Of a stretch of 32,000 nt of DNA, positions 2,344 through 28,626 are shown one piece after another (position 1 is the first letter of the stretch; every line of letters starts with the position of its first letter). The notes under the pieces are model-generated. The model had not been told where the DNA came from. It searched no databases and saw nothing but the letters and a program-made list of their open reading frames with translations. Location of the stretch: positions 30,001 to 62,000 of the forward strand of contig NZ_LGHJ01000017.1 in assembly GCF_001306055.1 (NCBI RefSeq), written 5' to 3'. The translations under genes and the position numbers were made by a program. This stretch comes from Bellilinea caldifistulae (GTDB taxonomy: Bacteria; Chloroflexota; Anaerolineae; Anaerolineales; Anaerolineaceae).

Positions 2344-2353
2344 CGTTTCACCC

Positions 2354-4476: not shown

Positions 4477-4477
4477 C

Positions 4478-4984: not shown

Positions 4985-5514
4985 TGGCGCACCTCCGCCT
5001 GTGGCATCTCAAAACCGGCGGGTAATTCGACCGTCATCGTGCGTTCCGGACGCTTGCCGCTTTTCAGCGCTTCCAGCAGCACGGCCACCCCATAAATGAT
5101 GCCCTCCGGGCGCGGCGGGCAGCCCGGCACAAACACATCCACCGGTAGCACTTCATCAATGCCATGAACGATGTTATAACAGCCATGAAAAACGCCCCCC
5201 GAAAGCCCGCACGACCCCACCGCAATCACAAATTTCGGCTCCGGCATCTGCCAGTAAATCCGCAACAGACGATCTTTGGCTTGTAAGGATACCGGACCGG
5301 TACAAATCAGTACATCCGCATGGCGGGGAGAACCCTGCAACTTAATCCCAAACCGTTCTACGTCATAACGCGGCGTTAGAGTTGCCAGAATTTCAATATC
5401 ACAGCCATTGCACGAACCACTATTGAAGTGAATTGCCCAGGGGGAATTAACCCGCGCCCACGTGCGGATTTTATCCAGCACCTGCTGCCATGGTGTGCTC
5501 ACCTCAAGACCCAT
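4981..5514 (-). CDS. Group 4 [NiFe]-hydrogenase small subunit (NuoB/MbhJ/HycG-like)
   Basis: Four Cys ligands for a single [4Fe-4S] cluster in NuoB-type spacing: SCNGCDIE, GSCGLSGG, VPGCPPRPE. I prefer the start at MGLEV (ATG 5514), which is preceded by GAGGAGG. The track start is 5532. Confidence 0.9.
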   Translation of the reverse strand: MGLEVSTPWQQVLDKIRTWARVNSPWAIHFNSGSCNGCDIEILATLTPRYDVERFGIKLQGSPRHADVLICTGPVSLQAKDRLLRIYWQMPEPKFVIAVGSCGLSGGVFHGCYNIVHGIDEVLPVDVFVPGCPPRPEGIIYGVAVLLEALKSGKRPERTMTVELPAGFEMPQAEVRQ

Positions 5515-5551
5515 TCCAACCTCCTCTTTCAAATCTTAAATCCGATACAAC

Positions 5552-5863
5552 CTATCCTAATAATAATGCAACCAGCGCCAAAATCAACCCCAGTAAAAAG
5601 GGCAGGATGCTGGCACTGAACTCACCCGTGCCTAATACCAGCATTCCCAAATGCAGAATGGCAAAGAAAAATGCAATCAGGAAAAAGGGACGGTAACCCG
5701 GCGCTGCGGCGGTGGAGGGAGCTGCTTCACCGCTTCCATAAGCACTTTCCTTAACCGGAGAAGGATTCTCCGGGCCGGCCAGCACTTTGCCAAACCGTTC
5801 AATGATCAGTACCAACGGGATGTAGAGTAAGAATGCCAGTGGAGGAGAGAGCAGAATTTCCAT
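5552..5863 (-). CDS. Small membrane subunit, NuoA/MbhI-like
   Basis: 103 aa with ~3 TM helices. The loop KESAYGSGEAAP sits where NuoA carries YECG, followed by FFLIAFFFAILHL. Strong RBS AAGGAGG. Confidence 0.65.
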   Translation of the reverse strand: MEILLSPPLAFLLYIPLVLIIERFGKVLAGPENPSPVKESAYGSGEAAPSTAAAPGYRPFFLIAFFFAILHLGMLVLGTGEFSASILPFLLGLILALVALLLG

Positions 5864-5877
5864 AAAGGTTTACCTCC

Positions 5878-7383: not shown

Positions 7384-7384
7384 G

Positions 7385-9136
7385 TCAACGCCCTCCCACA
7401 GCAAGACTTGCCAGTAAGATCAGGAATGCACAAACGATGGCAAACACATTCCAGTTCAACAGGCCCGGCTGAGTCACCCGCAGGGCTTCGGCCAGTTTTT
7501 GGGTGGCATTGACCACGCCGCGGTTGATTGCCTCAAAACCGAAACTCTCGGCTGCTGCCTTGCCCACCCCGCTGAGCGCCTGCCCCACCCGGCTCAGGCG
7601 CCGGCGCTGCCAGCCAGCCAGCCAGCCAAGTGCCACCACTCCCAGCGCCAGATAAGTCGCCGGAGCCGTGATGACTTCTTCAACTACCGCCAGCGTGCTG
7701 TGTACTTCCAGATGATGGGCTGGTAAACTCTCCGCCAGCAGGTGACCAAACGGCCCGGCCAGCAGCCAGGTGGTCAGGCTGCCAATGGCTAAGGGCAGCA
7801 GAGCCACTTTCATGGCATTGCCCGCATCGTGAACATGCCGTTCGGGATGCGCCTCACCGTAGAACACCATCGAGATCATGCGAACCGTGTAAAACGCCGT
7901 CAGCCCGGCCACAAAAACCATCAGCGCATACAACCACAGCGGATTTTCATGTAAACCCGCTTCCAGAATCAACTCTTTGCTCCAAAAGCCGTTGAAAATC
8001 GGGATGCCGGCCAAAGCCAAACCGCCAATCACAAATACGGCGCGGGTTACGGGCATATCCTTACCCAAGCCGCCCATCCGGCGCATATCGCGTGTACCCA
8101 CCGAGTGAATCACCGCCCCCGCAGCCAGGAACAACAGCGCCTTGAAAACGGAATGGCTGAGCAGGTGAAATTGACTGGCAAAAACCCCACCGGCACCAAC
8201 TGCATAAACCATAAAGCCCAATTGGGAAATGGTGGAATAAGCCAGTACCCGCTTCAAGTCGGTGGCAACCATCGCCATAACGGCTGCCAGCAAAGCCGAA
8301 AGCATCCCCACAATCATCACCGCTTCCCGCCAACCCGGAACCCCGGCAAAGGCCGGGTAAAAACGCGCCAGTAAATACACCCCGGCATTGACCATTGTAG
8401 CCGCATGAATCAGAGCACTGATGGGCGTGGGGGCTTCCATCGCATCCGGCAACCAGGTCTGGAAGGGGAATTGGGCGGATTTTGCCGCTGCAGCAATCAG
8501 ACAACCAAAACCCATCCAGGCCAGCACTCCTGCTGGCAAAATTGCCGGATTTTCAAGCAGCACATGAAAATCATTGCTGCCGGTATAGGCATACAGAAGC
8601 AGCGCCCCCGCCAGCAAACCAATCCCACCCAGCTGTGTGATGATCAGTGCTTTGATACCGCCCGCAACTGCCTTCGGATCATCGTTATGAAAAGAAATCA
8701 GCGCGTACGAACAAAGGGCAGTAATTTCCCAAAAGAAGAACATGAGCAGCAAATTACTGGTCAACACCAGACCGGCCATTCCCCCGATGAAAAACAGCAC
8801 AAAGGCGTAATAACGGGGCAGTTGCCCTTCCCCGTGCATATAATCCACCGAGAAGATGACCGCCAGCGAGCCAACTACTGTGGCAATGGCCGCCAGAAAA
8901 ACCCCCAATCCATCTACCACGAAGGTGAAATCACCAAACACCCCCCCCATCGGAAGGGAATAAACCAGCCGTTCTTTGCCGTAAGGCAGCAGCAGTAAAG
9001 CAGCAACCCCTGCCGCCACCGAAAACGCCACAGCCAGCAGATGGGTGAATTTTTCGTCCCGATCACCAGCCAGCCAGATGACCAGCGCCCCCAGCCAGGG
9101 CAAGCCAATTGTCAGCGTCAGCCAGGTCATCGCCAT
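7385..9136 (-). CDS. Antiporter-like membrane subunit (NuoL/MrpA/HyfB family)
   Basis: 583 aa polytopic protein. WLPDAMEAPTPISALIHAATMVNAGVYLL and LAYSTISQLGFM are typical NuoL/MrpA motifs. A GGAGG RBS overlaps the end of the previous gene. Confidence 0.88.
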   Translation of the reverse strand: MAMTWLTLTIGLPWLGALVIWLAGDRDEKFTHLLAVAFSVAAGVAALLLLPYGKERLVYSLPMGGVFGDFTFVVDGLGVFLAAIATVVGSLAVIFSVDYMHGEGQLPRYYAFVLFFIGGMAGLVLTSNLLLMFFFWEITALCSYALISFHNDDPKAVAGGIKALIITQLGGIGLLAGALLLYAYTGSNDFHVLLENPAILPAGVLAWMGFGCLIAAAAKSAQFPFQTWLPDAMEAPTPISALIHAATMVNAGVYLLARFYPAFAGVPGWREAVMIVGMLSALLAAVMAMVATDLKRVLAYSTISQLGFMVYAVGAGGVFASQFHLLSHSVFKALLFLAAGAVIHSVGTRDMRRMGGLGKDMPVTRAVFVIGGLALAGIPIFNGFWSKELILEAGLHENPLWLYALMVFVAGLTAFYTVRMISMVFYGEAHPERHVHDAGNAMKVALLPLAIGSLTTWLLAGPFGHLLAESLPAHHLEVHSTLAVVEEVITAPATYLALGVVALGWLAGWQRRRLSRVGQALSGVGKAAAESFGFEAINRGVVNATQKLAEALRVTQPGLLNWNVFAIVCAFLILLASLAVGGR

Positions 9137-9139
9137 AGG

Positions 9140-9451
9140 CTACCTCCGTAGCGTGGTCAACGCGCTTAAGTCCAGAGTGCCAACCACCCGCCGTACCTGC
9201 ACCGCCAGCGCAAGCCCCACCACCGCTACAATCGTATCGGCAACGATCACGGTCAGTGCCAGACTCTGTCCGAGGTTTTCCTGCCCCTGCAAGCGACCGG
9301 CCAGTACCAGCGCCAGCATGGCAGCCTTAACCATGATTTGCAGCGCAACCACCACCTTAATCAAATTGCGCACGGTCAGCAGCGCATAGGTGCCCACCCC
9401 CAACAAACCGATCACAATCAAAATCACAATGTTTGGAACGGATAAATTCAT
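9140..9451 (-). CDS. Small membrane subunit, NuoK/MrpC/MbhG-like
   Basis: ~103 aa with 3 TM helices, taking the start at MNLSVPNIVILIVIGLLGVGTYALL (ATG 9451). That ATG overlaps the upstream TGA as ATGA. The N-terminal 43 aa in the ORF track look spurious. Confidence 0.7.
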   Translation of the reverse strand: MNLSVPNIVILIVIGLLGVGTYALLTVRNLIKVVVALQIMVKAAMLALVLAGRLQGQENLGQSLALTVIVADTIVAVVGLALAVQVRRVVGTLDLSALTTLRR

Positions 9452-9948
9452 TCCCCATCCTCCGAAAGGCTGTGTTCGGCCGGGGTGGATTCCCTCTCGC
9501 TCAACAATCCAAGAACCCCCAGCACGCCGCAAAACACCAGTACCGCCTGCAAGAACACATCCATCTGACGATTGCCCCATAAAACCACTTTGAGAGCCGG
9601 TTCTCCCACCGATGGCCCAGCCCGGTCAATCCCCGGCACCAGCAAAACACCCAGCAAAACGATGGCAAGCACACTCATCACCACCGCCAGCGGTTCCTTG
9701 ATCAAGCCTTTCAGGTCAGCGGCTTCCTCGCCGGTGAGGTTGATCGCAAAAACAAACAAAACCGTTACCAGACCGGCCCCCACACTCAACTCGATCACCC
9801 CGATTTCAGGTGCGCCGAGCAGATACAATTCCAGCGCAACCAGAGCGCTGGTGCCGGCCAGCCACAATGCCGAAACAATCAAGCGCCGGGAACGGATGGC
9901 TTGAATGGCACACACCAGAATCCCGACCGCCGTCACGAGATGCAGCAT
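9448..9948 (-). CDS. Membrane subunit, NuoJ / MbhD-E / MrpB-like; first gene of the hydrogenase operon
   Basis: Start taken at MLHLVTAVGILV (ATG 9948) with GGAGG about 10 nt upstream. The pattern SALWLAGTSALVALELYLLGAPEIGVIELSVGAGLVTVLFVFAINL resembles the NuoJ/MbhD conserved core. Confidence 0.65.
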   Translation of the reverse strand: MLHLVTAVGILVCAIQAIRSRRLIVSALWLAGTSALVALELYLLGAPEIGVIELSVGAGLVTVLFVFAINLTGEEAADLKGLIKEPLAVVMSVLAIVLLGVLLVPGIDRAGPSVGEPALKVVLWGNRQMDVFLQAVLVFCGVLGVLGLLSERESTPAEHSLSEDGE

Positions 9949-10100
9949 GATGATTTTTCCTCCGGTGAAATGGGTCTCAAGATAGAAATGTCCGCCGACG
10001 CGCCGGTTACCCCTATGCCTGATCACATCTCCGACACCGATAAATCATAGGGAAAACATGCTCACTGGTATAGGTATATCATCATTTTTGACAAAAGTCA

Positions 10101-10221: not shown

Positions 10222-12306
10222 TTACATGCGAGTCAGCTGGAAGGTGACACCATAGTCCGAATCTTCGCCATCTTCGGGTGTCACATAACGATGTTCCACC
10301 ACATATCGTACCGTTGCCGGAGTATCTGGAGCCTTGGGCTTGGGATTATGACTGGTAGAAACTTCCTCAAACCTGTACCGCTCCACGGGGGGCAATTGTC
10401 CTTTCGGGCTGGTCAAGTTCCAGGCTTTGCGTGCATCCATCGTGATCAAGTCCACGGCTATCCGGTCGGCCGGCGCCCAGGCAGCCCAGAACAATCCCAC
10501 AATCAGGATCAAAGCAGCGACTACAGCCAGAACAATCAAGCCCTGCGTCAATGTCAGTGAAATCATTTTGGCAATGGATGCGGCGGTTCCTTCCATCGCA
10601 ACCGCCCCCTGCCAGATGTTTTCAAGGTAATGGACAAAAGCAGATCCAAAATCCCGTAATTGATCTCTTGCGGCTGATTCGCTGTCCACCTCAAAACCAA
10701 TCAGACCGGCCGCCATCAGCCCTCGATTGAAAGAACCGTTCCACAGATCAGCGCTGTACGCGCCCGAATCTTCCCCCGAGTCCATATCATCCCAGGCATC
10801 CCGATTAAACTCAACATGTTTCACGGGGGCAAGGGTATGTTTTCCGGAAGGCATCGAAGCCGGAATCAGGTGGGCAACCCACGCATCAAACCAGATCTCA
10901 TCCGAACCCAATCCATCCGTTTCTTCGTAGCAACGACCGTTTTCGCTCCAGAAATGGAAGGCAATGTTGGGATCCGGTTCAATTTGCAAAATCAATCGAT
11001 TCGATTTCAAACGAGGTGCAATTCCGCCGGAATAAACTGCCGAAAGCACATTATTAACCTCGATCCAGACATCGTAAAGACCGGGCGGGAAAGGCGCACC
11101 GGGTTGTTGAGGATGTTCTTTAGGGACATTGACCACAACCGAATCGAAAACCCGCCAATCATGGATGGTATGACCACTCTCATCCTTTACCGGGGTTTCC
11201 AGATCGCCAAAAACTGGAGCATCAAGGGATATTTTCAAACCAGTATCACGGTTTTGGAACCATACTTTGATCGTCTCGGTGATGAAATTGAACCCTCTCA
11301 GACAAATCGTCGCTCCCGGTTCAACCACTGGAAACTGAAGACACTGACCATTGAAGGTATAATCCTGCCCGCCCTCGCAAAAAGCCGGGAATAAAGCTCC
11401 GGGTGGGGGTGGCGGCGGAGTTTTCGGTGTGCAGTTGGCAATCAGTTCCCCCGGTTTGTTTAGGTTGACCGAAACGCTGCAATCCTTGGCAATTTGATAA
11501 GGCTGGAAAGTGTAAACATTTTCCATCGAAGAACGATAACTCGCCACGCTGCCGTATTCTTTATAATCGCCAATGTCCGGACGGATGGCAGTCAACCACG
11601 GCCACGGGCCGCTGAAAATCCGCGGCTGTTGAGAACCATTGGGGGTAGGCGGTAAAACCGCATCCCATATTCTGACCTGTCCGGGGCCTTTGATACCCTT
11701 TGAGTTCGACATCAGAGTTTGGGCAGTGTAAGCCAGCCCTTCCAGAACAAAGGCTTCTATCACATCTGCCGGCTGAACTCCATCGCCGCGGACTTTATCG
11801 GCCAAGCGCTCATCGAACAAACATTTACGCAAACGGGGTGATAAGTTCTCATAACCTTTAAACCCCTCCCCCAATGCTTTCAGTTGTTTTTTGTTCAAGC
11901 GCGAAAGCCCTTCAAAGATCATCTCTTCATAACCGGCTCGCGGATCTTCCCCCTTGCTGAAACGATAAAAAAGTTCTGCCATCATGGGGACAATGGCATC
12001 CACCGTTGGCAAATCACAACAAAGGCAATCTGCTTTTGTTCCGGGACGTTGTTTCGGTTTACGAAAATCGTCCACTTTAACCCCAGGAACCCGTTTCAGG
12101 ATCTCGGTGATTTGCTCTTTTTCTTTGGTCTTTCGCGAACGTCCCCCGCACCGACAATTGGCTTTGGGATTGGCTGCTTCCCCCATCGGTGGTGAACACG
12201 GATTTTCTGGTGAGATTTCTTCGCGGACTCCTTCCTCTCCCAGAGGATGCTGATGGGATGCCGTCTCCTCGGATGATTCTTCTTCTTTTTTTTCATGCGC
12301 TTTCAT
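10222..12306 (-). CDS. Hypothetical protein, 694 aa; Cys-rich N-terminal region, Pro-rich linker, beta-sandwich-like middle, single C-terminal TM helix
   Basis: Long uninterrupted ORF with an AGGAG RBS 7 nt before the ATG. I recognise no family. Features: an acidic/basic N-terminus with CRCGG and CLCCD; TPKTPPPPPPG; an IPT/TIG-like stretch PVVEPGATICLRGFNFITETIKVWF; an acidic DDMDSGEDSG; a TM segment LTQGLIVLAVVAALILIVGLFWAAWA (about 10475-10560); and a ~83-aa tail. Confidence 0.85.
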   Translation of the reverse strand: MKAHEKKEEESSEETASHQHPLGEEGVREEISPENPCSPPMGEAANPKANCRCGGRSRKTKEKEQITEILKRVPGVKVDDFRKPKQRPGTKADCLCCDLPTVDAIVPMMAELFYRFSKGEDPRAGYEEMIFEGLSRLNKKQLKALGEGFKGYENLSPRLRKCLFDERLADKVRGDGVQPADVIEAFVLEGLAYTAQTLMSNSKGIKGPGQVRIWDAVLPPTPNGSQQPRIFSGPWPWLTAIRPDIGDYKEYGSVASYRSSMENVYTFQPYQIAKDCSVSVNLNKPGELIANCTPKTPPPPPPGALFPAFCEGGQDYTFNGQCLQFPVVEPGATICLRGFNFITETIKVWFQNRDTGLKISLDAPVFGDLETPVKDESGHTIHDWRVFDSVVVNVPKEHPQQPGAPFPPGLYDVWIEVNNVLSAVYSGGIAPRLKSNRLILQIEPDPNIAFHFWSENGRCYEETDGLGSDEIWFDAWVAHLIPASMPSGKHTLAPVKHVEFNRDAWDDMDSGEDSGAYSADLWNGSFNRGLMAAGLIGFEVDSESAARDQLRDFGSAFVHYLENIWQGAVAMEGTAASIAKMISLTLTQGLIVLAVVAALILIVGLFWAAWAPADRIAVDLITMDARKAWNLTSPKGQLPPVERYRFEEVSTSHNPKPKAPDTPATVRYVVEHRYVTPEDGEDSDYGVTFQLTRM

Positions 12307-13607: not shown

Positions 13608-16600
13608 TTATTCGATCTTGAACACCATGCCAGCCGTCCTTCCCTGAATGTCGGGGAAGTAATAAGCGTAGGCATGCGCCGGCAGCACCCGAAATTCACC
13701 TGCCTGCAATGGCATGAGCCGGTAAGTCAGCAGGTACGTCCCGGCCGGCACATATGCTCCCACCCAGCGGATGTGATCGTCGAAGATTCGCGGTTCACTG
13801 AAATGCCACCAGCCCCAGCCACGAAGGAAGCGGTCTTGATCCACAACCCCATTCTGCCCTTGTTCACTCCCTTGCCGGGTGGTTAGCAAGGTCGTATTCA
13901 CAATTTCTGCACCAGCAGGAATGTAGTCTTCCACCACCAGATATGTGAGGTCCTCAGGTACGGTGATGGATAGTTGCACCTGCACAACCGGATTGCTCAT
14001 CGAACGGTTAACGCCGGTAACCGGCGAGCAGGCATCCGCCCGGCAGTCAGCACCTTCCAGATAGTATTGCCGGCTAAGGATAATTCCGCCGTCCATGGCT
14101 TGTACCGTCTCGACGGGTTGACCGACATCGAGGATCGCCCGGTAATACAGACGCCCGCTGCCAGCCGACCGTTGAATCCGCAGGGCATTTCGGTTGGAGG
14201 GGAATTGAGTGATATTCACATCCGCCCGCACCGTGTTGAAAGATTGCGCCCCTCCTGCTTCTCCGCTGGCAATGGCTGCTCCGTTCAAAGTGGCCGAGAA
14301 GGAGTAGTTGCCTTGCAGCTCGCCCGTCGCCCGCACAGCCCGGCTGAGGGCAGCCAGCACCCACCCGCTGCCGTAACTGTTCAACCAGCCTTGCACCCCG
14401 CGTTGGAGAGTCAGATAACGCACCGCATCACCCACGAGGGGCGAGGCCGGATCCAGATCGAGCAGCGCCATTAAAACAATGGCTGTTGAAGCGTAAGTAT
14501 TTGAAAAGCGGAACAGCGAGTTGTCTTCTTCCTGCCAGAAAACCCCATCTGCCGAGCGAACTGCCCCGCCCTGCAAGTCAGCCAAAATGGTCTGAGCCGA
14601 TTGAGTATCACCGCTGCTGTTGAGCGCCATCGCCAGAAATGCCTGCCCCCACGGATTTAATCGTCCGCGCAAGCGCAATAATTCCGGCGGAACTGGATTC
14701 TGGCGCCCATGTTGATTGAGGACAAAGTAGGCGAAAGCCAGCTGATCCAGTTTGGCGGTTTCCTGCGCCATTTCGGGCGTGTAAAGACTGGCTGTAACAA
14801 AACGATTGACATCTAAAATCTGAAAAGGTTCAATAACAAAACCGGCTGCACCCGCCTGATCGAGCACCCACAAAGCATAGGTACTCAAGAAAAAGTCACT
14901 CGGTTCGCTGCTGATCCAGCCCCAGCCCCCGTCAGCCTGCTTCTTTTCAAACAAGCGGTCGAGGTCACGCCGGATGGCTTGCTGCAAGCGTTCGCTCAGG
15001 TCCGGTGCGGAGAAATTGGTCTCCCGGCTCAATTGATACACACTCAAATTCGCCGCCAGACGCGAGAGCAATACCTCGACAAAATCATCCGGATAACCTT
15101 CCAACACCTCCAAACCCGAAAAGACGCTACCCGCCAGATTGGGAGAAAGCTCAATCCGCAGGTTGCCCCCGGTTGGGGTGAACGAGCGCGGCAGAGTGAC
15201 TACCTCCAAAACCTCTCCCGCCTCATCAAGAATCCCCCCCGTTACAAACGATTGGGGTGTGCTGTATCGGTGGATGGGTAAATTTTCATTAGAAAGCATT
15301 ACCGCATCTTGCAGCCCCCCACCTTCCACACTGAAAATCAACGAAGCCGAAGGGACATCCTCGACTTTGACCCACCAGTTGACCCGTTGACGGTCATTGG
15401 CACTCAGCTGAAGCGCCTGCCGCTCCAAACCCGGATTTTCCAGCACCAGCCCGCTGCTCTGCAAACGAACGGTGACATCCAGTGAAGCATCCGTGTTGTT
15501 TTGAACCACAGCCCCTATTTCAACCCGGTCACCCGCCACCACAAAACGCGGCAGAATGGGCCGGATTAGCAAATCCTTGCTGACCAAAATCTCGGCAACT
15601 GCTTCCCCCACCCGCGCATCACGGGTCAGTCCGCGCACAAGGACCACCCATGTGGTTAAATTGTCCGGCAGGTTAAATTCCAACCGGGCAAAACCACTCG
15701 AATCGGTTTCCAGCGCCCCGACCCAGTAGGCGGTATCTCGAAAATCACTGCGAACGGGAAGCGGAGAGGCATCTCCCCCTCCACCGCCGCCTAAGCCGCG
15801 CGGCAGCAACGGGATGCGGCCGATATATGCCGCCATGGAACAGCTGGTGAATACCCCCAGCGGCTGATCCCCGTAAAAAGCGCTGAATATATCCGGGGCA
15901 TTTGGCGTACTCAACGCAAAAATAGCCTTGTCCACCACGGCTACCGAGAACTCGCCCTGGAGCGGATTGCCGCGCTGATCCTTGACCTGTAGATCGAGCC
16001 GGGCGGTCTGGCGCGGTTCGAAACGGCTTTGTGGAGCAGCCAATCGTACATCCAGTTGAAACGCCTCTGGTTTCACCTTCAATTCGAGATAACCCTGCCT
16101 GAAATCCGGCTTGCCGGTTTCGTTCACCCCCAAGAGGGTAACCGAAACAAAAACATTGGGAGCAAATGCTTCCCCAATGGATAGATTTACCGTTTCGCCA
16201 CCCTCGCCAATCGAAAGCACCTGATCGGTAATCACACCGCGCCGTTCGACACTGAGCCACGCCAGGGTATTTCCCTTCAACGGATTGGGAATGAAGATCT
16301 GGGCAGTATCACCCACAGCATATCCCTTTCGGTCGGATTCCAGCCGAATCTGCTGGTTGGGTAAACGCGGCCATGGAGCGGCTCCGGATCCCCCCACCCA
16401 AACCAGGGCTTGAGAGACCGCCTCCTCGCCCCGCACCTCCAATCGGTAAATACCCGGTTCCTGGGGTGTGAATTCGAGGGTCGCCAGGCCGTTGTTACCG
16501 GTGCGCAGGTCGGCTCCGCTGACCGGAGTGACCACCTCACGGTAGGAGACGGCTCCGGTTTCGACTTCGCTCCATTCCTGTACCCACTCAATTCGATCAA

Positions 16601-19529
16601 AGGATGCACTCAACGGGCGGTCTGCAATGGGTTGATTCTGCCAATCCACCGTCAGAACAGAAAAGATGAACGGACTGCCGGCCGGTTGCACCCAGCTTTC
16701 CGGGCGAATTCCAATGACAAAATCCGCAGGGTGCAGGACGGTTTGCGCTCGCTGAGACACGGGAAAGCCGCTTTCGTCCGTCATAGTCACTTCGAGGGTC
16801 AGAACCTTTTGGCGATTTTCTTCCATCAGTGCTGTGAGATTTTGGCTGAGGAAAGTCAACGGAAAACGCCCGTCCGTCCCGGTAATGCCGCTCCCCCCTA
16901 TGATAAAATCCCCAAGCGGTAATTCCATCCGCATCCACCAGTCCGGTTCAAGCCAAAAGGTATCCACCCGACCCGAAACAAAGCCGCCCGGCAGGTCTGC
17001 TTCGGTGTTGCGGGCATACAATGACCAGCTGACATTGACCCCAGCAGCCAGCGCTCCAAAGAAATAATTGGCTGCCACCTCAGCGCGGATGTCTTCACCC
17101 GCCCGGTAATCGCTTTTGGAAAAAGCAACCTGCAAATCAATTTCCGGCTTGCGGTAGGCCGCCACCTGAAACTCAATCACCGAGTCGGGCTGATCCTCAA
17201 TTTGAATGGTATATATCCCCGTTGGCGTGTCGGGCGGCAATTGCACCTGCCCGTACGCCGTACCATAAGGCGAAAGGCTCAGTTTTTGGGTTTCCAGCAA
17301 GGGTGTCCCCTGTTCGGGGGAGTAGCTGCCGTAAATTTTTACGGTAATCTCTTTCAAGTCGGCGGGCGGGTAGCGTGCATCGTTCCACTGGCGAACAACA
17401 TAACGGTAGTAAACCATTTGCCCCGGTTGATAAATAGGGCGGTCGGTATAACCGTAGGTTTTGATCGGGGGTTGATCAAAATTGCTGTTAATTCCAAAGT
17501 TCCACGGGAAAATCCCACCATTCCATTCCGTGGTTGCCAGCGAAAAATCGGGGTCGCCCTCCTTTCCCAGCGTGACCACCAGCGTGCGGTAAGACCGGCT
17601 CTCGGTCAGGGAAATCCGAGCGATGCCCTGTTCATCGGTTTGGGCTTTGCCCAACTCCAATCCACTCCCCCCTTGGTACACGGTGACTTCACGCCCGCTC
17701 ACCGGACGGCGGTTCAAAGCGTTGACCGCCCAAACCACAACCTCTTGCTGGCTTTCTTTGATGGTCAATTGAATGGGACTGACCACCATTAGCAAATTCA
17801 CCGCTTGATAGGTTTCAGTAAATTGCGGCGAAGAAATACGAAACGCATAAAGACCGGTTTCCAGACCACTGCGATCCGCCTTGAGGGGAATTTCAATACC
17901 CTGACTGGTGTTCTGCGGTAAATTCAATTCAACCTGCCAGTTTTCCTCAAGCGGCAGCGAATCAAATGCGGGGGTGCGTTCGATGGCACGAATCACATCC
18001 AGCAGGGTTATTCGCGCCCGGCGGATACTCAACCCCTCCAGATTCGTGGCATAGGCTGGTAATGTGGTATCCCCCGGCAGGGCGTAATAGAGGGTGCCAT
18101 ATGTATTCTGGATGGGAATATTGAGGGTGGGAAGTGAATTACCGGCTTTGAAGGTGAAGGTATAATCCCGCCCGAGTGCCTGTCCCCAGCGGTCCTGGAG
18201 GTCTGCTTTCAGGGTCAAGCGGTAGGTTTGACCGCTCTTGAAGAAGCCGGAAATGTACAGAAAACCGGCCTGCTCATCGCTGAAAAGGAAGAAATTACTG
18301 ATTTTTGGTTCAAGGAGTACCCGATCATTCAAGTTTTGAGTGCGTGCCAGAGGGGCAGAAAATTCCACCAGCAGTGAGCCGTAATCGCCAAATACTTCCA
18401 GATCTTCCCCGTCTGCGGGGGTGGTGGAAACCACCTGAAATTGCCCCACCGTTCGAAAGGATTGGTTCAGTGTTTCCTCAATGGTTACTCCGCCCAAGGC
18501 TTCAACCCGATCCATCTCAACCACATATTCCCGATTTCGATCCAGCAACTCCTGAGGTTTAACGGCTACCACCGAATCGCGCTCGCTCCACTCATAGGTT
18601 AGATTAACCGGGCTGCCATCCTGCCTCCGCAGGCGTAAACCCTGCTCGACACTTCTCCGGTTCATGGGTTGATTGAAGGTCAGGCGAATCTGAACATCCA
18701 GCGGTTGTGCCCCTTCCAAAGGCGGTTCAATGCCGATGAGTGCCGGTTTGACAGTACTGAACTGCCAGTTCATCAATTCAGCATCCGGCAAGGACGTCCC
18801 ATCCACACCCACCAGTGTGGTATTCATCACAACCTGATAGGTCTGACCACCTTCCAGTGCCGGGCGGGGGGTGAACACGTACGTGCTGGTATTTAACCAG
18901 CGTCCTTCCCCTTCGGCGGCTGGCTGCAGGGAAAACGCCGCCGGTTCGGCTGAGCCCACTTCGCCCAACTCGATCACCGGACGATTGAAGGAAACCGCCA
19001 CAATTGAGGTTGGATCTAAATCCTGCACATCCGGTTGGGGGAGTCGTTCGGTGATGCGCAACTCACCTGCGGTGCGAAATTGGTAAGAAAACGCACGGAG
19101 CAGGTTATTGCCGCTGCGGTCTTTTGCGGTTGGCTGCAGCGTGAGCGTAAGTGGCGTATCCAACGGCAGGGCCTGATCCGGCACAAAACGCACCGATGTG
19201 TCATCCAACCACTCAAAACGGCCCGAGGTGACCGGACGGATCTCCAGAGCGCCCTCTACGGAAGGGCGATCCATCGGCTGATCAAAAGTCACAACCATCC
19301 CCTCGCGAGGGTTGATGATACTGCCCGGTTCGGGTTGAACCTCTAAAACTGTTGGGGGCAGTCCCTCTTGGAGCACAGGCAGCCGGGTAGGCTGAGCCAC
19401 TGTCTGAGTCGGCAGGGTCGAATTGGTCGTTCCACCAAATGGCAGATTGCAGGAAAGACCCACAACGGCCATCAATCCAAACAAGGTCATCATCACCCGA
19501 AACAAACCCGGTTGAGTATGGTTTCTCAT
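13608..19529 (-). CDS. Alpha-2-macroglobulin family protein (~1973 aa) with N-terminal tandem Ig-like domains; thioester motif degenerate
   Basis: A2M-domain signature VRSDFRDTAYWVGALETDSSGFARLEFNLPDNLTTWVVLVRGLT. The TED-like alpha/alpha region contains QADGGWGW. Four SbsA-Ig-like repeats occupy about 18174-19358. I place the start at MRNHTQPGLFRVMMTLFGLMAVVGLSC (ATG 19529, GGAGGA RBS), which gives a signal peptide ending in Cys. Confidence 0.9.
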   Translation of the reverse strand: MRNHTQPGLFRVMMTLFGLMAVVGLSCNLPFGGTTNSTLPTQTVAQPTRLPVLQEGLPPTVLEVQPEPGSIINPREGMVVTFDQPMDRPSVEGALEIRPVTSGRFEWLDDTSVRFVPDQALPLDTPLTLTLQPTAKDRSGNNLLRAFSYQFRTAGELRITERLPQPDVQDLDPTSIVAVSFNRPVIELGEVGSAEPAAFSLQPAAEGEGRWLNTSTYVFTPRPALEGGQTYQVVMNTTLVGVDGTSLPDAELMNWQFSTVKPALIGIEPPLEGAQPLDVQIRLTFNQPMNRRSVEQGLRLRRQDGSPVNLTYEWSERDSVVAVKPQELLDRNREYVVEMDRVEALGGVTIEETLNQSFRTVGQFQVVSTTPADGEDLEVFGDYGSLLVEFSAPLARTQNLNDRVLLEPKISNFFLFSDEQAGFLYISGFFKSGQTYRLTLKADLQDRWGQALGRDYTFTFKAGNSLPTLNIPIQNTYGTLYYALPGDTTLPAYATNLEGLSIRRARITLLDVIRAIERTPAFDSLPLEENWQVELNLPQNTSQGIEIPLKADRSGLETGLYAFRISSPQFTETYQAVNLLMVVSPIQLTIKESQQEVVVWAVNALNRRPVSGREVTVYQGGSGLELGKAQTDEQGIARISLTESRSYRTLVVTLGKEGDPDFSLATTEWNGGIFPWNFGINSNFDQPPIKTYGYTDRPIYQPGQMVYYRYVVRQWNDARYPPADLKEITVKIYGSYSPEQGTPLLETQKLSLSPYGTAYGQVQLPPDTPTGIYTIQIEDQPDSVIEFQVAAYRKPEIDLQVAFSKSDYRAGEDIRAEVAANYFFGALAAGVNVSWSLYARNTEADLPGGFVSGRVDTFWLEPDWWMRMELPLGDFIIGGSGITGTDGRFPLTFLSQNLTALMEENRQKVLTLEVTMTDESGFPVSQRAQTVLHPADFVIGIRPESWVQPAGSPFIFSVLTVDWQNQPIADRPLSASFDRIEWVQEWSEVETGAVSYREVVTPVSGADLRTGNNGLATLEFTPQEPGIYRLEVRGEEAVSQALVWVGGSGAAPWPRLPNQQIRLESDRKGYAVGDTAQIFIPNPLKGNTLAWLSVERRGVITDQVLSIGEGGETVNLSIGEAFAPNVFVSVTLLGVNETGKPDFRQGYLELKVKPEAFQLDVRLAAPQSRFEPRQTARLDLQVKDQRGNPLQGEFSVAVVDKAIFALSTPNAPDIFSAFYGDQPLGVFTSCSMAAYIGRIPLLPRGLGGGGGGDASPLPVRSDFRDTAYWVGALETDSSGFARLEFNLPDNLTTWVVLVRGLTRDARVGEAVAEILVSKDLLIRPILPRFVVAGDRVEIGAVVQNNTDASLDVTVRLQSSGLVLENPGLERQALQLSANDRQRVNWWVKVEDVPSASLIFSVEGGGLQDAVMLSNENLPIHRYSTPQSFVTGGILDEAGEVLEVVTLPRSFTPTGGNLRIELSPNLAGSVFSGLEVLEGYPDDFVEVLLSRLAANLSVYQLSRETNFSAPDLSERLQQAIRRDLDRLFEKKQADGGWGWISSEPSDFFLSTYALWVLDQAGAAGFVIEPFQILDVNRFVTASLYTPEMAQETAKLDQLAFAYFVLNQHGRQNPVPPELLRLRGRLNPWGQAFLAMALNSSGDTQSAQTILADLQGGAVRSADGVFWQEEDNSLFRFSNTYASTAIVLMALLDLDPASPLVGDAVRYLTLQRGVQGWLNSYGSGWVLAALSRAVRATGELQGNYSFSATLNGAAIASGEAGGAQSFNTVRADVNITQFPSNRNALRIQRSAGSGRLYYRAILDVGQPVETVQAMDGGIILSRQYYLEGADCRADACSPVTGVNRSMSNPVVQVQLSITVPEDLTYLVVEDYIPAGAEIVNTTLLTTRQGSEQGQNGVVDQDRFLRGWGWWHFSEPRIFDDHIRWVGAYVPAGTYLLTYRLMPLQAGEFRVLPAHAYAYYFPDIQGRTAGMVFKIE

Positions 19530-19675
19530 GGGGGATCCTCCGTAAACACCGCTCAATCCACTGGCGAACTAACTTTACTTTACCACAATTTGAGGGGGAA
19601 AACTCCCATCGAATTTATTGAGGCAAACCGCAATAGTTTTCAGGATAGACGCTCTTGAGTCGGTTAAAGTTTCAG

Positions 19676-22169: not shown

Positions 22170-22748
22170 ATGTTCAGGCGCGGATTTTTCTCCCCTCACG
22201 GGTGGATCACAATCGGCTTTGGGTTCTTCCTGCTTTGCGCCTGTCAATCCCCATCACTGGAAATACGCGTGGAAAATCAGAGCAGCCTGCCAATTTGCGA
22301 AATCTACTTTTCGCCACACCAGCAAACGGATTTTGGCGAAAATCAGTTGCCCGAAGGGGAGTGGATCGCCGGTGGCAGCAGTCAGACTTTCACCCTCGAA
22401 GCCGGAGTGTACGACCTGTTGATACGCTCCTGCTCGGAAGAGACCCTCTACTCCGCTGCCCAAATTTCCCAAAACCGTTCCATCATCATCGGCAGCCAGG
22501 GGAACGCTCTGTTTCGGGTGACCAATCAAACCACGCAGGAAATTTGCTACCTTTACATTTCCAGTAACGAAGAATGGGGGGACGACCGCCTGGGTAAGGT
22601 CGAGAGCATTCTGCCTGGCAGTAAGCGGGTTTTCTTTTTACCGCCTGACATCTACCATGCCCGGGCATTGGATTGCGGCGAAAATGTCCTTGCCGAAATT
22701 GGAGAGGTCAACCTGAGCGACTCGTTCGAGTGGGTGATCTCCCCTTGA
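22170..22748 (+). CDS. Hypothetical secreted protein or lipoprotein with an internal two-fold repeat
   Basis: Signal peptide with a lipobox-like LLCAC. There are two ~75-aa repeats sharing V-x-N-Q-(S/T)-x3-I-C-x-(I/L)-Y ... G ... Y(D/H) ... C. The start is 9 nt after the PAP2 gene. Confidence 0.7.
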   Translation: MFRRGFFSPHGWITIGFGFFLLCACQSPSLEIRVENQSSLPICEIYFSPHQQTDFGENQLPEGEWIAGGSSQTFTLEAGVYDLLIRSCSEETLYSAAQISQNRSIIIGSQGNALFRVTNQTTQEICYLYISSNEEWGDDRLGKVESILPGSKRVFFLPPDIYHARALDCGENVLAEIGEVNLSDSFEWVISP

Positions 22749-22793: not shown

Positions 22794-22889
22794 GGGAGTG
22801 GTCGGGTCCCGGTGGGCTCCCCGGTCTTCAAAACCGGTGGCGGGCCGCGTTGCGGGCCGCGGTGGGTTCGACTCCCATCCATTCCCGCC
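22794..22889 (+). tRNA. selC: tRNA-Sec (anticodon UCA)
   Basis: Hand fold: an 8-bp acceptor stem GGGAGTGG/CCATTCCC (one G-U); a 6-bp D-stem GGGTCC/GGGCTC with a 4-nt loop CGGT; anticodon stem CCGGT/ACCGG with loop CTTCAAA (TCA at 22828-22830); a long GC-rich variable arm (about 22839-22861); and a T-arm GTGGG-TTCGACT-CCCAT. Discriminator G is followed by CC. The layout parallels E. coli selC as I remember it. Confidence 0.9.
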
Positions 22890-24139: not shown

Positions 24140-25244
24140 CAAAGGTCTCAATCCATTCGCCCTGCAAGGTCCGGTAAACACCCAGTGCCGAGACGGTCAG
24201 GCAGACATGCGCAGGGATCACCCCGATCAAGCCGCCAATTGTAAGAGAAGAAAAAACTTCTGGGGGCAAACGGACGATTCCATGTTCCTGGGAAAGCCGC
24301 ACCAGCGCGCCACCCGGAATGCGCGGCGACCATCCCCGCTCATTCAGCAGCACGGCCCAGCCATAAGCGGCTATGCCATTTTCTGTCACGCTGTCTTTGG
24401 AAAAGTGAACCGCGCCCCCGTAGATTACCGCCTCTTGTCGTTCGGGGTGGAAAGCCACCAATGGGCAGGCAACCACTGCGGCTATGTCGGCCTCCCGGCA
24501 GGCTCCCAACTGTGCCATCTGAGCATCGTAAAAGACAAAATTACCCGGGCGGATTTCATCAACCCCTTCAAAATTATCACTCAGGCTGCAACCGGGGGTA
24601 TCACCCACCGATACTTCCAGACCATCAATGCCGTTCTGCTCTAAAAATTGGCGCACCTGGTTCATGCGCTGGTTGCTGCGTCGAAACCGCTGCACCACTT
24701 CGTCCGGGTTTTGGCTTTGATAGGTCTCCCCGGCGTGGGTCAACAACCCACGCAGATTCAAGTGAGGCTGCTGCCGAACGTGACCGGCCAAATCCAGAAC
24801 AGCGTGGGAATCATTCCATGCCAGACCTGTGCGTCGGCTGCCGCTGTCAATCTTAATCCACACATCAACCGGCCTTTCCACCGCATCCGCAAGTGCTTCA
24901 ACATGCCCGGCACACTCCACCAGCACACCCAGCCGGATGAATTCGCTCAACCGGCGCACCAGATTGATCTGGCGTAAATTGAGGGGAAACGCAACCAGTA
25001 TGTCTTTCCAACCGTGTCCGGCAAAATACGCTGCCATCTCCAGCGAGGAAACGGTAATTGCCTGAATACCAAACGGCCGAAACCACTCACCTGCTTGCGC
25101 CGATTGATGGGTCTTGAAATGGGGGCGCAAGCGTACCCCCGCCGTATTGGCCTTTTCGACCATGCGTTGAATGTTCTTCTGAACACGCTGGGGATCGATC
25201 AACAGCGTTGGACGAGAAATATCGGGATATAAGGTTGGGTTCAT
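24108..25244 (-). CDS. D-TA / DSD1-family PLP-dependent enzyme (D-threonine aldolase or D-serine dehydratase-like, alanine-racemase fold)
   Basis: PTLLIDPQRVQKNIQRMVEKANTAGVRLRPHFKTHQS matches the N-terminal PLP-lysine region (RPH-x-K-T-H) of this family. Confidence 0.75.
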   Translation of the reverse strand: MNPTLYPDISRPTLLIDPQRVQKNIQRMVEKANTAGVRLRPHFKTHQSAQAGEWFRPFGIQAITVSSLEMAAYFAGHGWKDILVAFPLNLRQINLVRRLSEFIRLGVLVECAGHVEALADAVERPVDVWIKIDSGSRRTGLAWNDSHAVLDLAGHVRQQPHLNLRGLLTHAGETYQSQNPDEVVQRFRRSNQRMNQVRQFLEQNGIDGLEVSVGDTPGCSLSDNFEGVDEIRPGNFVFYDAQMAQLGACREADIAAVVACPLVAFHPERQEAVIYGGAVHFSKDSVTENGIAAYGWAVLLNERGWSPRIPGGALVRLSQEHGIVRLPPEVFSSLTIGGLIGVIPAHVCLTVSALGVYRTLQGEWIETFVRASAPAGRG

Positions 25245-25267
25245 GGCTCTATTGTATAATAATTGGC

Positions 25268-27001
25268 ATGAATAATCAGCAATTAGCCGAGATTTTTGAG
25301 CGTATCGCCAATTTGTTGGAAATCAACGGCGAAGTGGTCTATAAAACCCTTGCCTATCGGCGGGCTGCCGAAAGCCTGCGGGCTTATCCGCGTGAAGCCG
25401 AGGAACTGTACCGCGAAGGTAAACTGACGGAAATTCCCGGCGTTGGCAAAGCCATCGCCGAAAAGATCGAAGAATTGCTCACCACCGGCAAACTGGGCTT
25501 TCTGGAAAGACTGGAGCAGGAAGTTCCCCCAACCTTGCTGGAATTGCTCGAAATACCGGATGTTGGCCCCAAAAAAGTGGCTCTGTTTTGGAAACAAGCC
25601 GGCATCACCTCCCTGATGGATCTGGAATCGGCTGCGCGGGATGGCCACCTTCGCCGCCTTCCGGGAATCGGCGAAAAGTCCGAGCAGCGCATCCTCGCCG
25701 GGATTGAGGCGCTGCGCAGGCGCAGCAAACGCATGTTACTTGGCACGGTGCGCCCAATTGGCCTGCGCTGGTTAAACTGGCTGCGGGGACTTCCCGGTGT
25801 GCGGGAGGCCGAGCTGGCTGGCAGCCTGCGCCGCTGGAAGCCGACCATTGGAGACCTTGATCTGGTGGCGGCAGCCGATGATCCGGTGGCTGTAATGGAG
25901 GCTTTTGTCCATCATGATGAAGTTGTGCGGGTGCTGGCACATGGTGAAAACAAATCCAGCATCGAGCTGAGCAACGGCTTGAATATCCAGCTCTGGATTC
26001 AACCACAGGCGAAATTCGGTTCACTGCTCCAATTCGTGACCGGTTCCAAAGATCACAACGTGCGCCTGCGCGAACTGGCCCAGCGGAAAGGTTTTTCCCT
26101 CTCCGAGCATGGGCTGACCACCCCCGACGGCAAGGAGCTATTCTTTGCCAACGAATCCGACCTCTATCAGGCCCTTGACCTGGAATGGATACCACCGGAA
26201 CTGCGAGAAGATCGCGGCGAGATCCAGGCAGCTCTGGAACACCGTCTGCCGGATCTGATCAGTCCAGCCGACCTGATTGCCGAATTGCACAGCCACACCA
26301 CCTGGAGCGACGGAGCGCTGAGCATTCACGAGATGGCCAGGGCAGCCAAAGCACGCGGCTTGAAGGTGCTGGCAATTACCGACCACACCCATTCACTGGG
26401 CATCGCCAACGGGCTGGACGCCGACCGCCTGCGCCAGCAGCGCAAAGAAATAGACGCCGTCCAGGCAATGCTGGGCGAGGAGTTGACCCTGCTGCAAGGC
26501 GCCGAGGTTGAAATCAAAGCCGATGGTAGTCTGGACCTGGCCGATGATGTGCTGGCCGAGCTGGATATTGTGATCGCATCCCTGCATGTCAGCCTGCGCC
26601 AGCCGCGCGAGGAAATCACCGCCCGCTTGCTGCGTGCCATCCGCAACCCGCACGTGGACATCATTGGTCACCCCAGCGGGCGTTTGCTTCCCAACCGCGA
26701 AGGCGCGGATTTGGATTGGGAAGCGATCTTAACCGCTGCCCGCGAAGAAAATGTTGCCCTCGAAATTAACGCCAATCCCTCACGACTGGATCTGGATGAA
26801 GTACATGCGCGTCGGGCTGTGGAACTGGGAATCCTGTTGAGCATCAACACCGATGCTCACAGCCCGGCGGATCTGGAGCTGGCAGAATATGGGGTTTCGG
26901 TCGCACGGCGGGCCTGGGTGAGCGCCGCTCAAGTGTTGAACACCCGCTCTCCCGCCGAAATTCGCCGCTGGCTGGCTGAACACCGCCACAAATCCGGCTA
27001 G
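25268..27001 (+). CDS. polX: Family X DNA polymerase with C-terminal PHP domain (PolX)
   Basis: HhH-rich N-terminus (MNNQQLAEIFERIANLLEINGE...), pol-beta nucleotidyltransferase motif GSLRRWKPTIGDLDLV, and PHP motifs ELHSHTTWSDG and ITDH. I prefer the start at ATG 25268. The track start at 25208 overlaps the divergent gene. Confidence 0.9.
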   Translation: MNNQQLAEIFERIANLLEINGEVVYKTLAYRRAAESLRAYPREAEELYREGKLTEIPGVGKAIAEKIEELLTTGKLGFLERLEQEVPPTLLELLEIPDVGPKKVALFWKQAGITSLMDLESAARDGHLRRLPGIGEKSEQRILAGIEALRRRSKRMLLGTVRPIGLRWLNWLRGLPGVREAELAGSLRRWKPTIGDLDLVAAADDPVAVMEAFVHHDEVVRVLAHGENKSSIELSNGLNIQLWIQPQAKFGSLLQFVTGSKDHNVRLRELAQRKGFSLSEHGLTTPDGKELFFANESDLYQALDLEWIPPELREDRGEIQAALEHRLPDLISPADLIAELHSHTTWSDGALSIHEMARAAKARGLKVLAITDHTHSLGIANGLDADRLRQQRKEIDAVQAMLGEELTLLQGAEVEIKADGSLDLADDVLAELDIVIASLHVSLRQPREEITARLLRAIRNPHVDIIGHPSGRLLPNREGADLDWEAILTAAREENVALEINANPSRLDLDEVHARRAVELGILLSINTDAHSPADLELAEYGVSVARRAWVSAAQVLNTRSPAEIRRWLAEHRHKSG

Positions 27002-27790: not shown

Positions 27791-28075
27791 ATGGCAAAAG
27801 CAATCTGGAACAATACCATACTGGCAGAAAGTGATCAAACCATTGTCATTGAAGGCAATCACTACTTTCCCCCGTCTGCCGTCAAGTGGGATTATTTTGT
27901 AAAAAGCGAAACCCACACCACCTGCCCGTGGAAAGGCGAAGCCAGTTACTACACGATTGTGGTCAACGGACAAAGCAATCCGGATGCCGCCTGGTATTAC
28001 CCCAACCCCAAAGAAGCAGCCCGTCAGATAAAGGATTATGTGGCGTTCTGGCGCGGCGTCCGGGTTGAAGCCTGA
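27791..28075 (+). CDS. DUF427 domain protein
   Basis: 94 aa. AESDQTIVIEGNHYFPPSAV...SETHTTCPWKGEASYYTIVVNG...AAWYYPNP...YVAFW matches the DUF427 pattern. Confidence 0.75.
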   Translation: MAKAIWNNTILAESDQTIVIEGNHYFPPSAVKWDYFVKSETHTTCPWKGEASYYTIVVNGQSNPDAAWYYPNPKEAARQIKDYVAFWRGVRVEA

Positions 28076-28080
28076 AAAGC

Positions 28081-28626
28081 ATGGGCGGATTGCTCATAGG
28101 AGACCGAATCGAGCCTTTTTCCCTGCCCTCAGCAGACGGGAATCCTTATTCATTTTCTGACCTGCTCAACGGAAATCCTTACCTGCTACTTGTATTTTTG
28201 CGTCATTTGGGTTGAATACCCTGCCGCGAACATGCTTTGCAGTTGCAAAGCGCCCGGGCTGAATTCCAGCAGGCCGGTATTTCCATCGCCCTGGTTACCT
28301 TTGAGCAGGGATACTTGCTGGAGCAATGGAGGGAAACCACTCGAATAGACTTTCCCATCCTGCTCGATCCACAGAAGAACCTGTATCGGGCTTTCGGCTT
28401 GCAGCGTTCCATCCGCCGGACGTGGAATTTAGCGACCCTGTGGTTTTATGCCCGGAGATTAATACGGGGTGAAAAGTTGATCGCCACCGGCGGTGATCTG
28501 CATCAATTAGGGGGTGATTTTATCCTCGACCGGGAGGGTGTGGTACTGCTGGCCTATTACAGCCACGACCCGACCGATCGGCCACATCCCAAATCCTTGT
28601 TGCAATCCATTCCATTAGAAAGTTAG
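28081..28626 (+). CDS. Peroxiredoxin-like (AhpC/TSA, Prx-like2) thiol oxidoreductase with predicted selenocysteine at codon 45 (TGA 28213-28215)
   Basis: The frame is open from ATG 28081 except for one TGA. It reads ...NPYLLLVFLRHLG-U-IPCREHALQLQSARAEFQQAGISIALVTFE..., which joins in frame (156 nt = 52 codons) to track ORF 28237-28626. U-x-x-C replaces the C-x-x-C of this thioredoxin-fold family. A hairpin lies 18 nt downstream, and tRNA-Sec is in the same window. Confidence 0.75.
28234..28251 (+). promoter_or_regulatory. Candidate bacterial SECIS hairpin
   Basis: GCUUUGC-AGUU-GCAAAGC forms a perfect 7-bp stem. The apical loop contains GU and lies 26-29 nt downstream of the first base of the UGA (28213). 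Confidence 0.55.

Follow-up and report, generated by a model that had tools for sequence, protein, structure and literature searches.

Organization of the locus

The analysed window, a stretch of DNA 32 kb in length, carries on its forward strand a reading frame that begins at ATG 28081, ends at TAG 28624-28626, and is interrupted by one stop only, a TGA at 28213-28215. This frame and its single TGA had been proposed in an earlier note on the same DNA, and they were recovered from the sequence along with the 5-nt spacing to the preceding DUF427 gene (ORF end at 28075) and the TTG start at 28237. The latter is the start used in the mechanical list of open reading frames, in which the gene is represented by 28237..28626 and a product of 129 aa. 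All coordinates in the earlier note were correct. The features of the locus are as follows.

22794..22889, + strand: tRNA-Sec gene (selC), anticodon TCA (ARAGORN; Rfam RF01852)
27791..28075, + strand: DUF427 gene (Pfam PF04248, 120.3 bits), ending in a TGA stop
28081..28626, + strand: proposed complete selenoprotein CDS, a SelL-related / Prx-like2 thioredoxin-fold redox protein of 181 codons plus TAG, with the motif U45-I-P-C48
28213..28215, + strand: in-frame TGA, read here as Sec (residue 45); Cys in homologues and TGA in ~165 related loci
28222..28224, + strand: TGC encoding Cys48, the putative resolving partner in UxxC; its column is invariant in alignment A2 and corresponds to the peroxidatic Cys of 5epf
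28234..28251, + strand: putative SECIS hairpin (5' arm 28234-28240, loop AGUU 28241-28244, 3' arm 28245-28251)
28237..28239, + strand: TTG used as a start by ORF and gene callers, considered false, inside the 5' arm of the hairpin

Given that the DUF427 stop lies 5 nt before the ATG of the proposed selenoprotein gene, co-transcription or translational coupling of the two genes is probable. Gene order in the seven Bellilinea-type loci (L001-L007) was that of the window, DUF1684 - DUF427 - selenoprotein gene.

Conservation of the in-frame TGA

Among database proteins, the nearest relatives (P0001-P0006 and P0009) are calls of 129-136 aa, and P0001 and P0003-P0006 are each 129 aa. The lengths of P0001-P0006 agree with the prediction of the earlier note that standard gene callers would truncate this protein and remove its active site. 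At the DNA level, the identical in-frame TGA is present in loci L001-L009, where the coding region ahead of it, for the N-terminus, is also conserved. On the 571-kb contig Ga0226835_1000010 the gene is 98% identical. All full-length homologues have Cys in the TGA column (FLRHLG-C-xx-CRE), which is the alignment of Cys with the proposed Sec that the earlier note had named as a check.

Scans with a clade alignment were used to collect 160 further loci, 80 from genome_contigs (one genome per species) and 80 from metagenomes. The scan patterns were either neutral or biased toward Cys codons, with one explicitly demanding a Cys codon and none favoring TGA. A TGA was present at the motif in all 80 of the retrieved genome_contigs loci, from genomes that include Bellilinea, Anaerolinea, Anaerolineales, Ardenticatenales, Caldilineaceae, Armatimonadota/Chthonomonadaceae, and Poribacteria. 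The metagenome loci had TGA in 75/80 and TGC in 2/80, and the motif was not located in the other 3/80. Altogether an in-frame TGA was found in ~165 related loci, with orthologues down to ~36-43% identity, and the codons flanking the TGA diverge while the TGA stays at the identical codon. Cys orthologues were represented by L010 (TGT) and L136 (TGC), both of which share the FLRHLG-C-xx-C motif.

The 44 codons before the TGA were compared between the window and L001, yielding 13, 6, and 27 differences at the first, second, and third codon positions (23 synonymous and 11 nonsynonymous codons). In Bellilinea-type orthologues generally, changes in these 44 codons fall mostly on third positions, a pattern that agrees with the part after the TGA. 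Judging from these substitutions, the 44 upstream codons are under purifying selection as coding sequence. A conserved N-terminus, the other homology check named in the earlier note, was found as 44 conserved residues before the TGA with coding-type substitutions.

Selenocysteine decoding machinery and TGA usage

The tRNA-Sec gene at 22794-22889 lies on the same contig, 5.3 kb upstream, where the earlier note had placed it. It was detected by using ARAGORN and by Rfam RF01852 (70.5 bits against a gathering score of 47), and it was the only Rfam match at gathering score in the whole window. The gene is syntenic in the Bellilinea MAG loci L001 and L002. No selA, selB, or selD was present among the ORFs of the 32-kb window, and a tblastn search with SelD (the E. 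coli sequence) against all fetched loci with flanks of up to 6 kb returned no match. At the level of the class, published tables list SelD, SelA, and SelB for Anaerolinea thermophila UNI-1 together with four selenoproteins, and for Caldilinea aerophila together with three (PMC5029168 Tables S1, S2).

Of the 20 Pfam-supported ORFs in the window, 10 end in TGA, among them the neighbouring DUF427 gene. Genome-wide reassignment of TGA was rejected on the basis of this ordinary use as a stop.

The hairpin downstream of the TGA

A hairpin with the sequence GCUUUGC-AGUU-GCAAAGC, that is, a perfect 7-bp stem closed by an AGUU loop, has its first base 18 nt after the TGA, in agreement with the description in the earlier note. 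Its folding energy is -10.2 kcal/mol and the spacing from UGA to loop is 25 nt. The published consensus for bacterial SECIS elements gives a loop of 3-9 nt, a stem of 4-16 bp, a G in the first two loop positions, a UGA-loop distance of 16-37 nt, and an MFE of ≤ -7.5 kcal/mol (PMC13188914). On all four published criteria the window hairpin falls within these limits, and its stem covaries, which upholds the bacterial SECIS proposed in the earlier note.

The same register was recovered, with at least 5 of the 7 pairs, in 114/137 unique TGA-form sequences (83%). An AGUU loop occurred in 121 of 139 unique sequences, a set that includes two Cys forms. Most members lacking AGUU formed their hairpin at this location with the register shifted, and its loop, GGU, also follows the G rule. 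Pairs were counted in alignment A3, consisting of 133 distinct sequences, in which 76% of cells pair versus 24-58% with slid partners. Double (compensatory) changes were observed at 5 of the 7 pairs. The covariation score was 0.363 versus ≤ 0.188 for the slid controls, and 0/500 shuffles reached 0.363 (phylogeny uncorrected). Pairing was also visible at the synonymous third base of an Ala codon in the 5' arm, with GCA opposite Cys UGY 76 times and GCG opposite Arg CGN 26 times. The 2x2 table of this Ala third base against the first base of the opposing codon was 78/0/3/38, with three mismatches (phylogeny uncorrected).

The stability of the 76-nt region did not differ significantly from that of shuffled sequences (z = -1.48), and GC-rich distant Cys homologues also fold stably in the hairpin region, by other structures. 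Given that stability was uninformative, register-specific pairing and covariation were used as evidence. Applied to A3, RNAalifold returned only the apical 4 of 7 bp, at a weak -3.12 kcal/mol, and it gave no alternative conserved structure within 57 nt of the UGA. Rfam SECIS families produced no match at gathering score in the whole window and none at E ≤ 10 in 28100-28400. A PtaRNA1 match on the minus strand, obtained from Rfam at E ≤ 10 in 28100-28400, was rejected as chance. Since the bacterial SECIS models in Rfam are each specific to a lineage and gene, a missing match does not count against a SECIS.

Cys forms of the gene differed from one another in this region. Three distant Cys homologues had 3-5 of 7 pairs, attributable to chance, and no loop following the G rule. 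In the Cys orthologue L136/L139 (TGC) the hairpin was lost (1/7 pairs), and in the Cys orthologue L010/L011 (TGT, 45% identity) a perfect 7-bp hairpin with an AGUU loop was present at the same offset. L010 is read most simply as having recently exchanged Sec for Cys while retaining a relic SECIS. Since this Cys form keeps the hairpin, the hairpin alone is no proof of Sec decoding. As a SECIS mark, the hairpin put forward in the earlier note thus stands in that it is nearly universal in TGA forms, but it is not exclusive to them.

Protein family, fold, and active site

For profile searches, the TGA was replaced by Cys in the 181-aa product. This sequence matched Pfam AhpC-TSA (65.6 bits), AhpC-TSA_2 (PF13911, 59.6 bits against a cutoff of 27), and Redoxin. 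The read-through product also matched the NCBIfam family NF040769, "SelL-related redox protein", with 157.6 bits (cutoff 120) over profile positions 7-172 of 173. The 129-aa call reached only 107.1 bits against the same profile, which is under the cutoff, and covered positions 45-172 only. The truncated database relatives P0002 and P0005 likewise scored below the NF040769 cutoff with partial matches. Nine of the ten Cys-type homologues tested passed it, and P0019 fell slightly short (118.3 bits). The family that fits best is SelL-related (NF040769) / Pfam AhpC-TSA_2.

An AlphaFold2 model built on alignment A1 had a mean pLDDT of 89.8 and a pTM of 0.88. Given that strand β1 spans residues 34-39 and helix α1 residues 47-57 in this model, U45 is predicted to cap the N-terminus of helix α1, where thioredoxin folds with a CxxC motif have their attacking Cys. 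The 129-aa product is without β1 and without the entire redox motif. Fold neighbours of the model were BCP/PrxQ peroxiredoxins and human prostamide/PGF synthase. The latter, with its C44/C47 site, had the highest identity (24%) and the lowest RMSD (2.7 Å) among the fold matches, with a TMq of 0.71.

Alignment to the peroxiredoxin 5epf placed U45 on the Thr of TxxC, C48 on the peroxidatic Cys, and Leu40 on the Pro. The canonical peroxiredoxin signature PxxxTxxC is therefore not kept relative to 5epf, with Thr replaced by Sec, Pro by Leu, and only the Cys retained. Because U45 aligns with the peroxiredoxin Thr and C48 with the peroxidatic Cys, the site is, as read from this alignment, a thioredoxin-like UxxC rather than a canonical peroxiredoxin site. 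The earlier note had described a peroxiredoxin-like active site. The described placement of Sec, first in a CxxC-type motif between β1 and α1, was confirmed, whereas a canonical peroxiredoxin site was not found in the 5epf alignment.

The neighbouring genes, encoding DUF1684, DUF427, a small ORF, a YtfJ-like protein, and a dUTPase, gave no hint at a substrate.

Interpretation and alternative readings

The region 28081-28626 is interpreted as a genuine selenoprotein gene encoding 181 residues and carrying its own SECIS, with a probability of roughly 90%. The reading in which the TGA is a real stop, through pseudogenization, sequencing error, or a split gene, would leave a 44-aa peptide, a separate 129-aa protein from TTG 28237, or no functional product at all. 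This is exactly the call made by ORF finding and by public gene callers, and TGA is an ordinary stop for 10/20 ORFs of the window. This reading is highly improbable given that the TGA occupies the identical codon in ~165 loci from several phyla with diverged flanking codons, that the 44 upstream codons are under purifying selection as coding sequence, that the 129-aa product lacks β1 and the active site and scores under the family cutoff, and that the TTG sits within a conserved RNA stem. A pseudogene or split gene was rejected on the conservation of the TGA and the coding-type N-terminus. Decoding of the TGA as a standard amino acid (Trp or Gly) by an alternative code, with no selenocysteine involved, is barely conceivable. 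The database protein P0008 does have W at the TGA column, but this W comes from a gene call with TGA=Trp; translation of the locus with table 11 does not give P0008, and in that call the true TGA stop is read through. Moreover, TGA stops 10 of the 20 Pfam-supported ORFs of the window, DUF427 included, the column in homologues is Cys and not Trp or Gly, and a tRNA-Sec is present.

It is also very unlikely that Sec is inserted while the hairpin at 28234-28251 serves another role, such as mRNA stability or translational pausing, with the element for SelB located elsewhere. The perfect hairpin at the same offset in the Cys orthologue L010, the missing match to Rfam SECIS models, and the stable but different folds of GC-rich distant homologues would all accord with such a role. 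The position, loop, and stem of the hairpin nevertheless agree with every published bacterial SECIS criterion, and the hairpin is near-universal in TGA forms, lost in L136/L139 (1/7 pairs), and absent in distant Cys homologues (3-5/7 pairs, no G-rule loop). L010 itself is most simply explained by recent Sec-to-Cys conversion with a relic SECIS, and no other conserved structure was seen within 57 nt of the UGA. The role of the protein was weighed separately. A function as canonical thiol peroxidase (peroxiredoxin), in place of a thioredoxin-like thiol-disulfide oxidoreductase or an endoperoxide reductase, is regarded as unlikely, though by a smaller measure. The Pfam AhpC-TSA match (65.6 bits) and the best PDB neighbours in both sequence and fold, which are BCP/PrxQ peroxiredoxins, speak for a peroxidase. 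On the other side, PxxxTxxC is not kept (Thr to Sec, Pro to Leu), the motif is of the CxxC kind seen in Prx-like2 proteins, prostamide/PGF synthase (C44/C47; 24%, 2.7 Å) among them, and the best family match is SelL-related / AhpC-TSA_2.

Proposed mechanism

As a selenoprotein gene, the locus would have selenocysteine inserted at the UGA of codon 45. The Sec-tRNA(Sec) encoded by selC at 22794-22889 would be brought by a SelB-type elongation factor, which is presumed to bind the mRNA hairpin at 28234-28251 and to compete with release factor 2 in supplying Sec to the ribosome. In the protein, the selenolate of Sec45 would most likely attack an oxidised substrate, which from the motif, fold, and family could be a peroxide/endoperoxide or a disulfide, producing a selenenic acid or a mixed selenenylsulfide. 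Cys48, located one helical turn past Sec45, would then resolve the adduct by forming an intramolecular Se-S bond, and a thioredoxin-like reductant would reduce this bond. The catalytic chemistry and the substrate class given here are the most likely ones by analogy of motif, fold, and family.

Comparison with known selenoproteins

Prx-like UxxC selenoproteins have been described since 2004-2008. They include a "Prx-like thiol:disulfide oxidoreductase" (PF00578, UxxC/UxxU) in the table of a selenoprotein review (PMC13188914) and the "Prx-like 1" family (pfam00578, UxxC) of the GOS selenoproteome, with 225 sequences (PMC2398784 Table 2). Bacterial Prx-like selenoproteins and the window protein share a thioredoxin-fold AhpC/TSA-type domain, Sec at the first position of UxxC, and Cys in homologues. 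They also share a SECIS within the CDS shortly after the UGA and routine truncation by gene callers (PMC13188914, PMC2398784). The window clade differs from Prx-like 1 and similar families in its FLRHLG-U-[IL]PCREH motif and AhpC-TSA_2 region, a comparison made from published descriptions. It also belongs mainly to Anaerolineae and other Chloroflexota and to Armatimonadota, lineages that go unmentioned for this family in the selenoprotein literature covered here. The window gene is an addition to the established class of bacterial Prx-like UxxC selenoproteins.

The eukaryotic selenoprotein SelL has been described as "a Prx-like protein" (PMC2398784). SelL, found in fish and aquatic invertebrates, resembles the window protein in having Sec and a redox motif at β1-α1 of a Prx-like thioredoxin fold. 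In the 2007 account of Shchedrina et al., SelL reportedly has two Sec residues (UxxU, forming a diselenide) and a eukaryotic SECIS in the 3'-UTR. The window protein, unlike SelL with its UxxU, has one Sec (U-I-P-C), and its SECIS is of the bacterial type, located within the reading frame. As this frame contains only one TGA, a UxxU diselenide motif is not present. NCBI already curates a bacterial family under the name "SelL-related redox protein" (NF040769), whose cutoff the window protein passes.

Human PRXL2B, the prostamide/prostaglandin F synthase (PDB 9us9 / 9usa), has C44/C47 at the same place as U45/C48, and the sequence match to it spans residues 37-176. PRXL2B differs in being eukaryotic and in having Cys instead of Sec. 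The substrate of PRXL2B, prostaglandin H2 / prostamide H2, would not be anticipated in bacteria.

The window hairpin resembles the SECIS of the E. coli fdhF type in being a stem-loop directly 3' of the UGA, inside the ORF, with a small apical loop containing G then U. The fdhF SECIS has a GGUC loop. By comparison, the window hairpin has an AGUU loop and shows neither a bulged U nor an extended lower helix.

A Sec-dominated clade in Anaerolineae/other Chloroflexota and Armatimonadota was not described in those parts of the selenoprotein literature that were searched, and neither was the systematic truncation of its members in protein databases. Titles and abstracts of the literature on Anaerolineae with selenoproteins contained nothing on this family. 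Deep-Sep makes no mention of AhpC, Chloroflexota, or peroxiredoxin, and in the BSepDB paper Dehalococcoidia are the only Chloroflexota mentioned.

Implications for annotation

In most selenoprotein families, Cys forms far outnumber Sec forms. Among the closest 160 loci examined here, ~155 had Sec versus 2 with Cys. We tentatively raise the possibility, with the odds judged to be against it, that these loci represent a large SelL-related clade that is almost always Sec-containing, characterized by FLRHLG-U-[IL]PCREH and its own AGUU/GGU SECIS, distributed over Anaerolineae and other Chloroflexota, Armatimonadota, and Poribacteria, systematically truncated in public databases, and maybe never explicitly catalogued. 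If this were true, L010 with its intact SECIS would be a Sec-to-Cys conversion caught in the act.

The main value of the analysis lies in the correction of annotation. Public protein entries for this gene, in the window and in all close relatives retrieved, are 129-136 aa long. Because such truncated entries score below the family naming cutoff, they are labelled "AhpC/TSA family protein" or "hypothetical". Restoring the Sec codon would add a selenoprotein to Bellilinea, Anaerolinea, and many uncultured Chloroflexota and Armatimonadota. These lineages are abundant in hot springs, digesters, and sediments, and the correction bears on estimates of selenium use in those environments. The understanding of Sec decoding or of Prx-like selenoproteins is unaltered, and specialists would not be surprised. 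The 133 distinct SECIS sequences also provide a clean natural covariation set for one type of SECIS.

Public gene calls hiding the selenoprotein

Two relative loci show different ways in which gene calling obscures the selenoprotein gene:

L001:5609-6154, Bellilinea MAG, selenoprotein gene cut in two by the gene caller
L009:165-773, public entry for the database protein P0008, with Trp at the Sec column (the column of the window TGA)

At L001, the pieces consist of a 44-aa ORF running up to the TGA and a 136-aa ORF that starts at the ATT codon directly 3′ of it. P0008 runs 24 residues beyond the true TGA stop, and its contig was evidently gene-called under a genetic code in which TGA encodes Trp. 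Calling of this kind masks the selenoprotein gene by a route other than truncation.

Sequence variation across the SECIS element

One Cys orthologue has the hairpin intact:

L010:6124-6165 (gene 6001-6570; also L011), Cys orthologue with TGT at the Sec column and 45% identity

L010, and also L011, carries a perfect 7-bp hairpin (GUCGCGC-AGUU-GCGCGAC) at exactly the offset of the SECIS, and the L010 hairpin may be a relic SECIS left by a recent Sec-to-Cys change. From a second Cys lineage (L136/L139) the hairpin is gone.

Residue 56 is a third Cys (AQL-C) or Arg in most clade members and Gln in the window (window 28246-28248, columns 40-42 of the 133-sequence alignment A3). The codon for this residue contributes to the SECIS 3′ arm, so constraints on the protein and on the RNA are intertwined at that position.

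One subclade is defined by the motif RHLA-U-LPCRDHV.QV, in which Ala precedes Sec and Q-V replaces Q-L (L031, L040, L044, L053, L054, L088, L116, L117, L146, L148, and L171). The AGUU register is not matched by this subclade; a GGU-loop hairpin with a 1-base shift folds in most of its members.

Other genes in the window

Elsewhere in the window lie:

1458-10026 (-), clustered genes encoding a membrane-bound group-4-type [NiFe] hydrogenase / Mbh-Mrp-like complex
13608-19556 (-), 1982-aa ORF with a bacterial alpha-2-macroglobulin domain set
25208-27001 (+), DNA polymerase of family X whose C-terminus carries a PHP domain (HHH_8, DNA_pol_B_thumb, PHP)

Among the products of the hydrogenase cluster are the maturation protease HycI and the large subunit (Complex1_49kDa / NiFeSe_Hases). 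Its other subunits include a NuoH-like one, those of 30 kDa and 20 kDa, two that resemble antiporters, and chain 4L and MbhD-like subunits. Domains in the 1982-aa ORF are MG2, bMG3, bMG6, the A2M bait region, A2M, TED, and bMG10, with Big_5 at the N-terminus. Two sizeable window ORFs had no Pfam match, at 10222-12306 (-; 694 aa) and 22170-22748 (+; 192 aa). The latter is located directly 5′ of the tRNA-Sec gene, and an ORF of equal length occupies the corresponding place in L002 and L004. The family X DNA polymerase gene lies within a block that is syntenic with the selenoprotein gene across Bellilinea MAGs.
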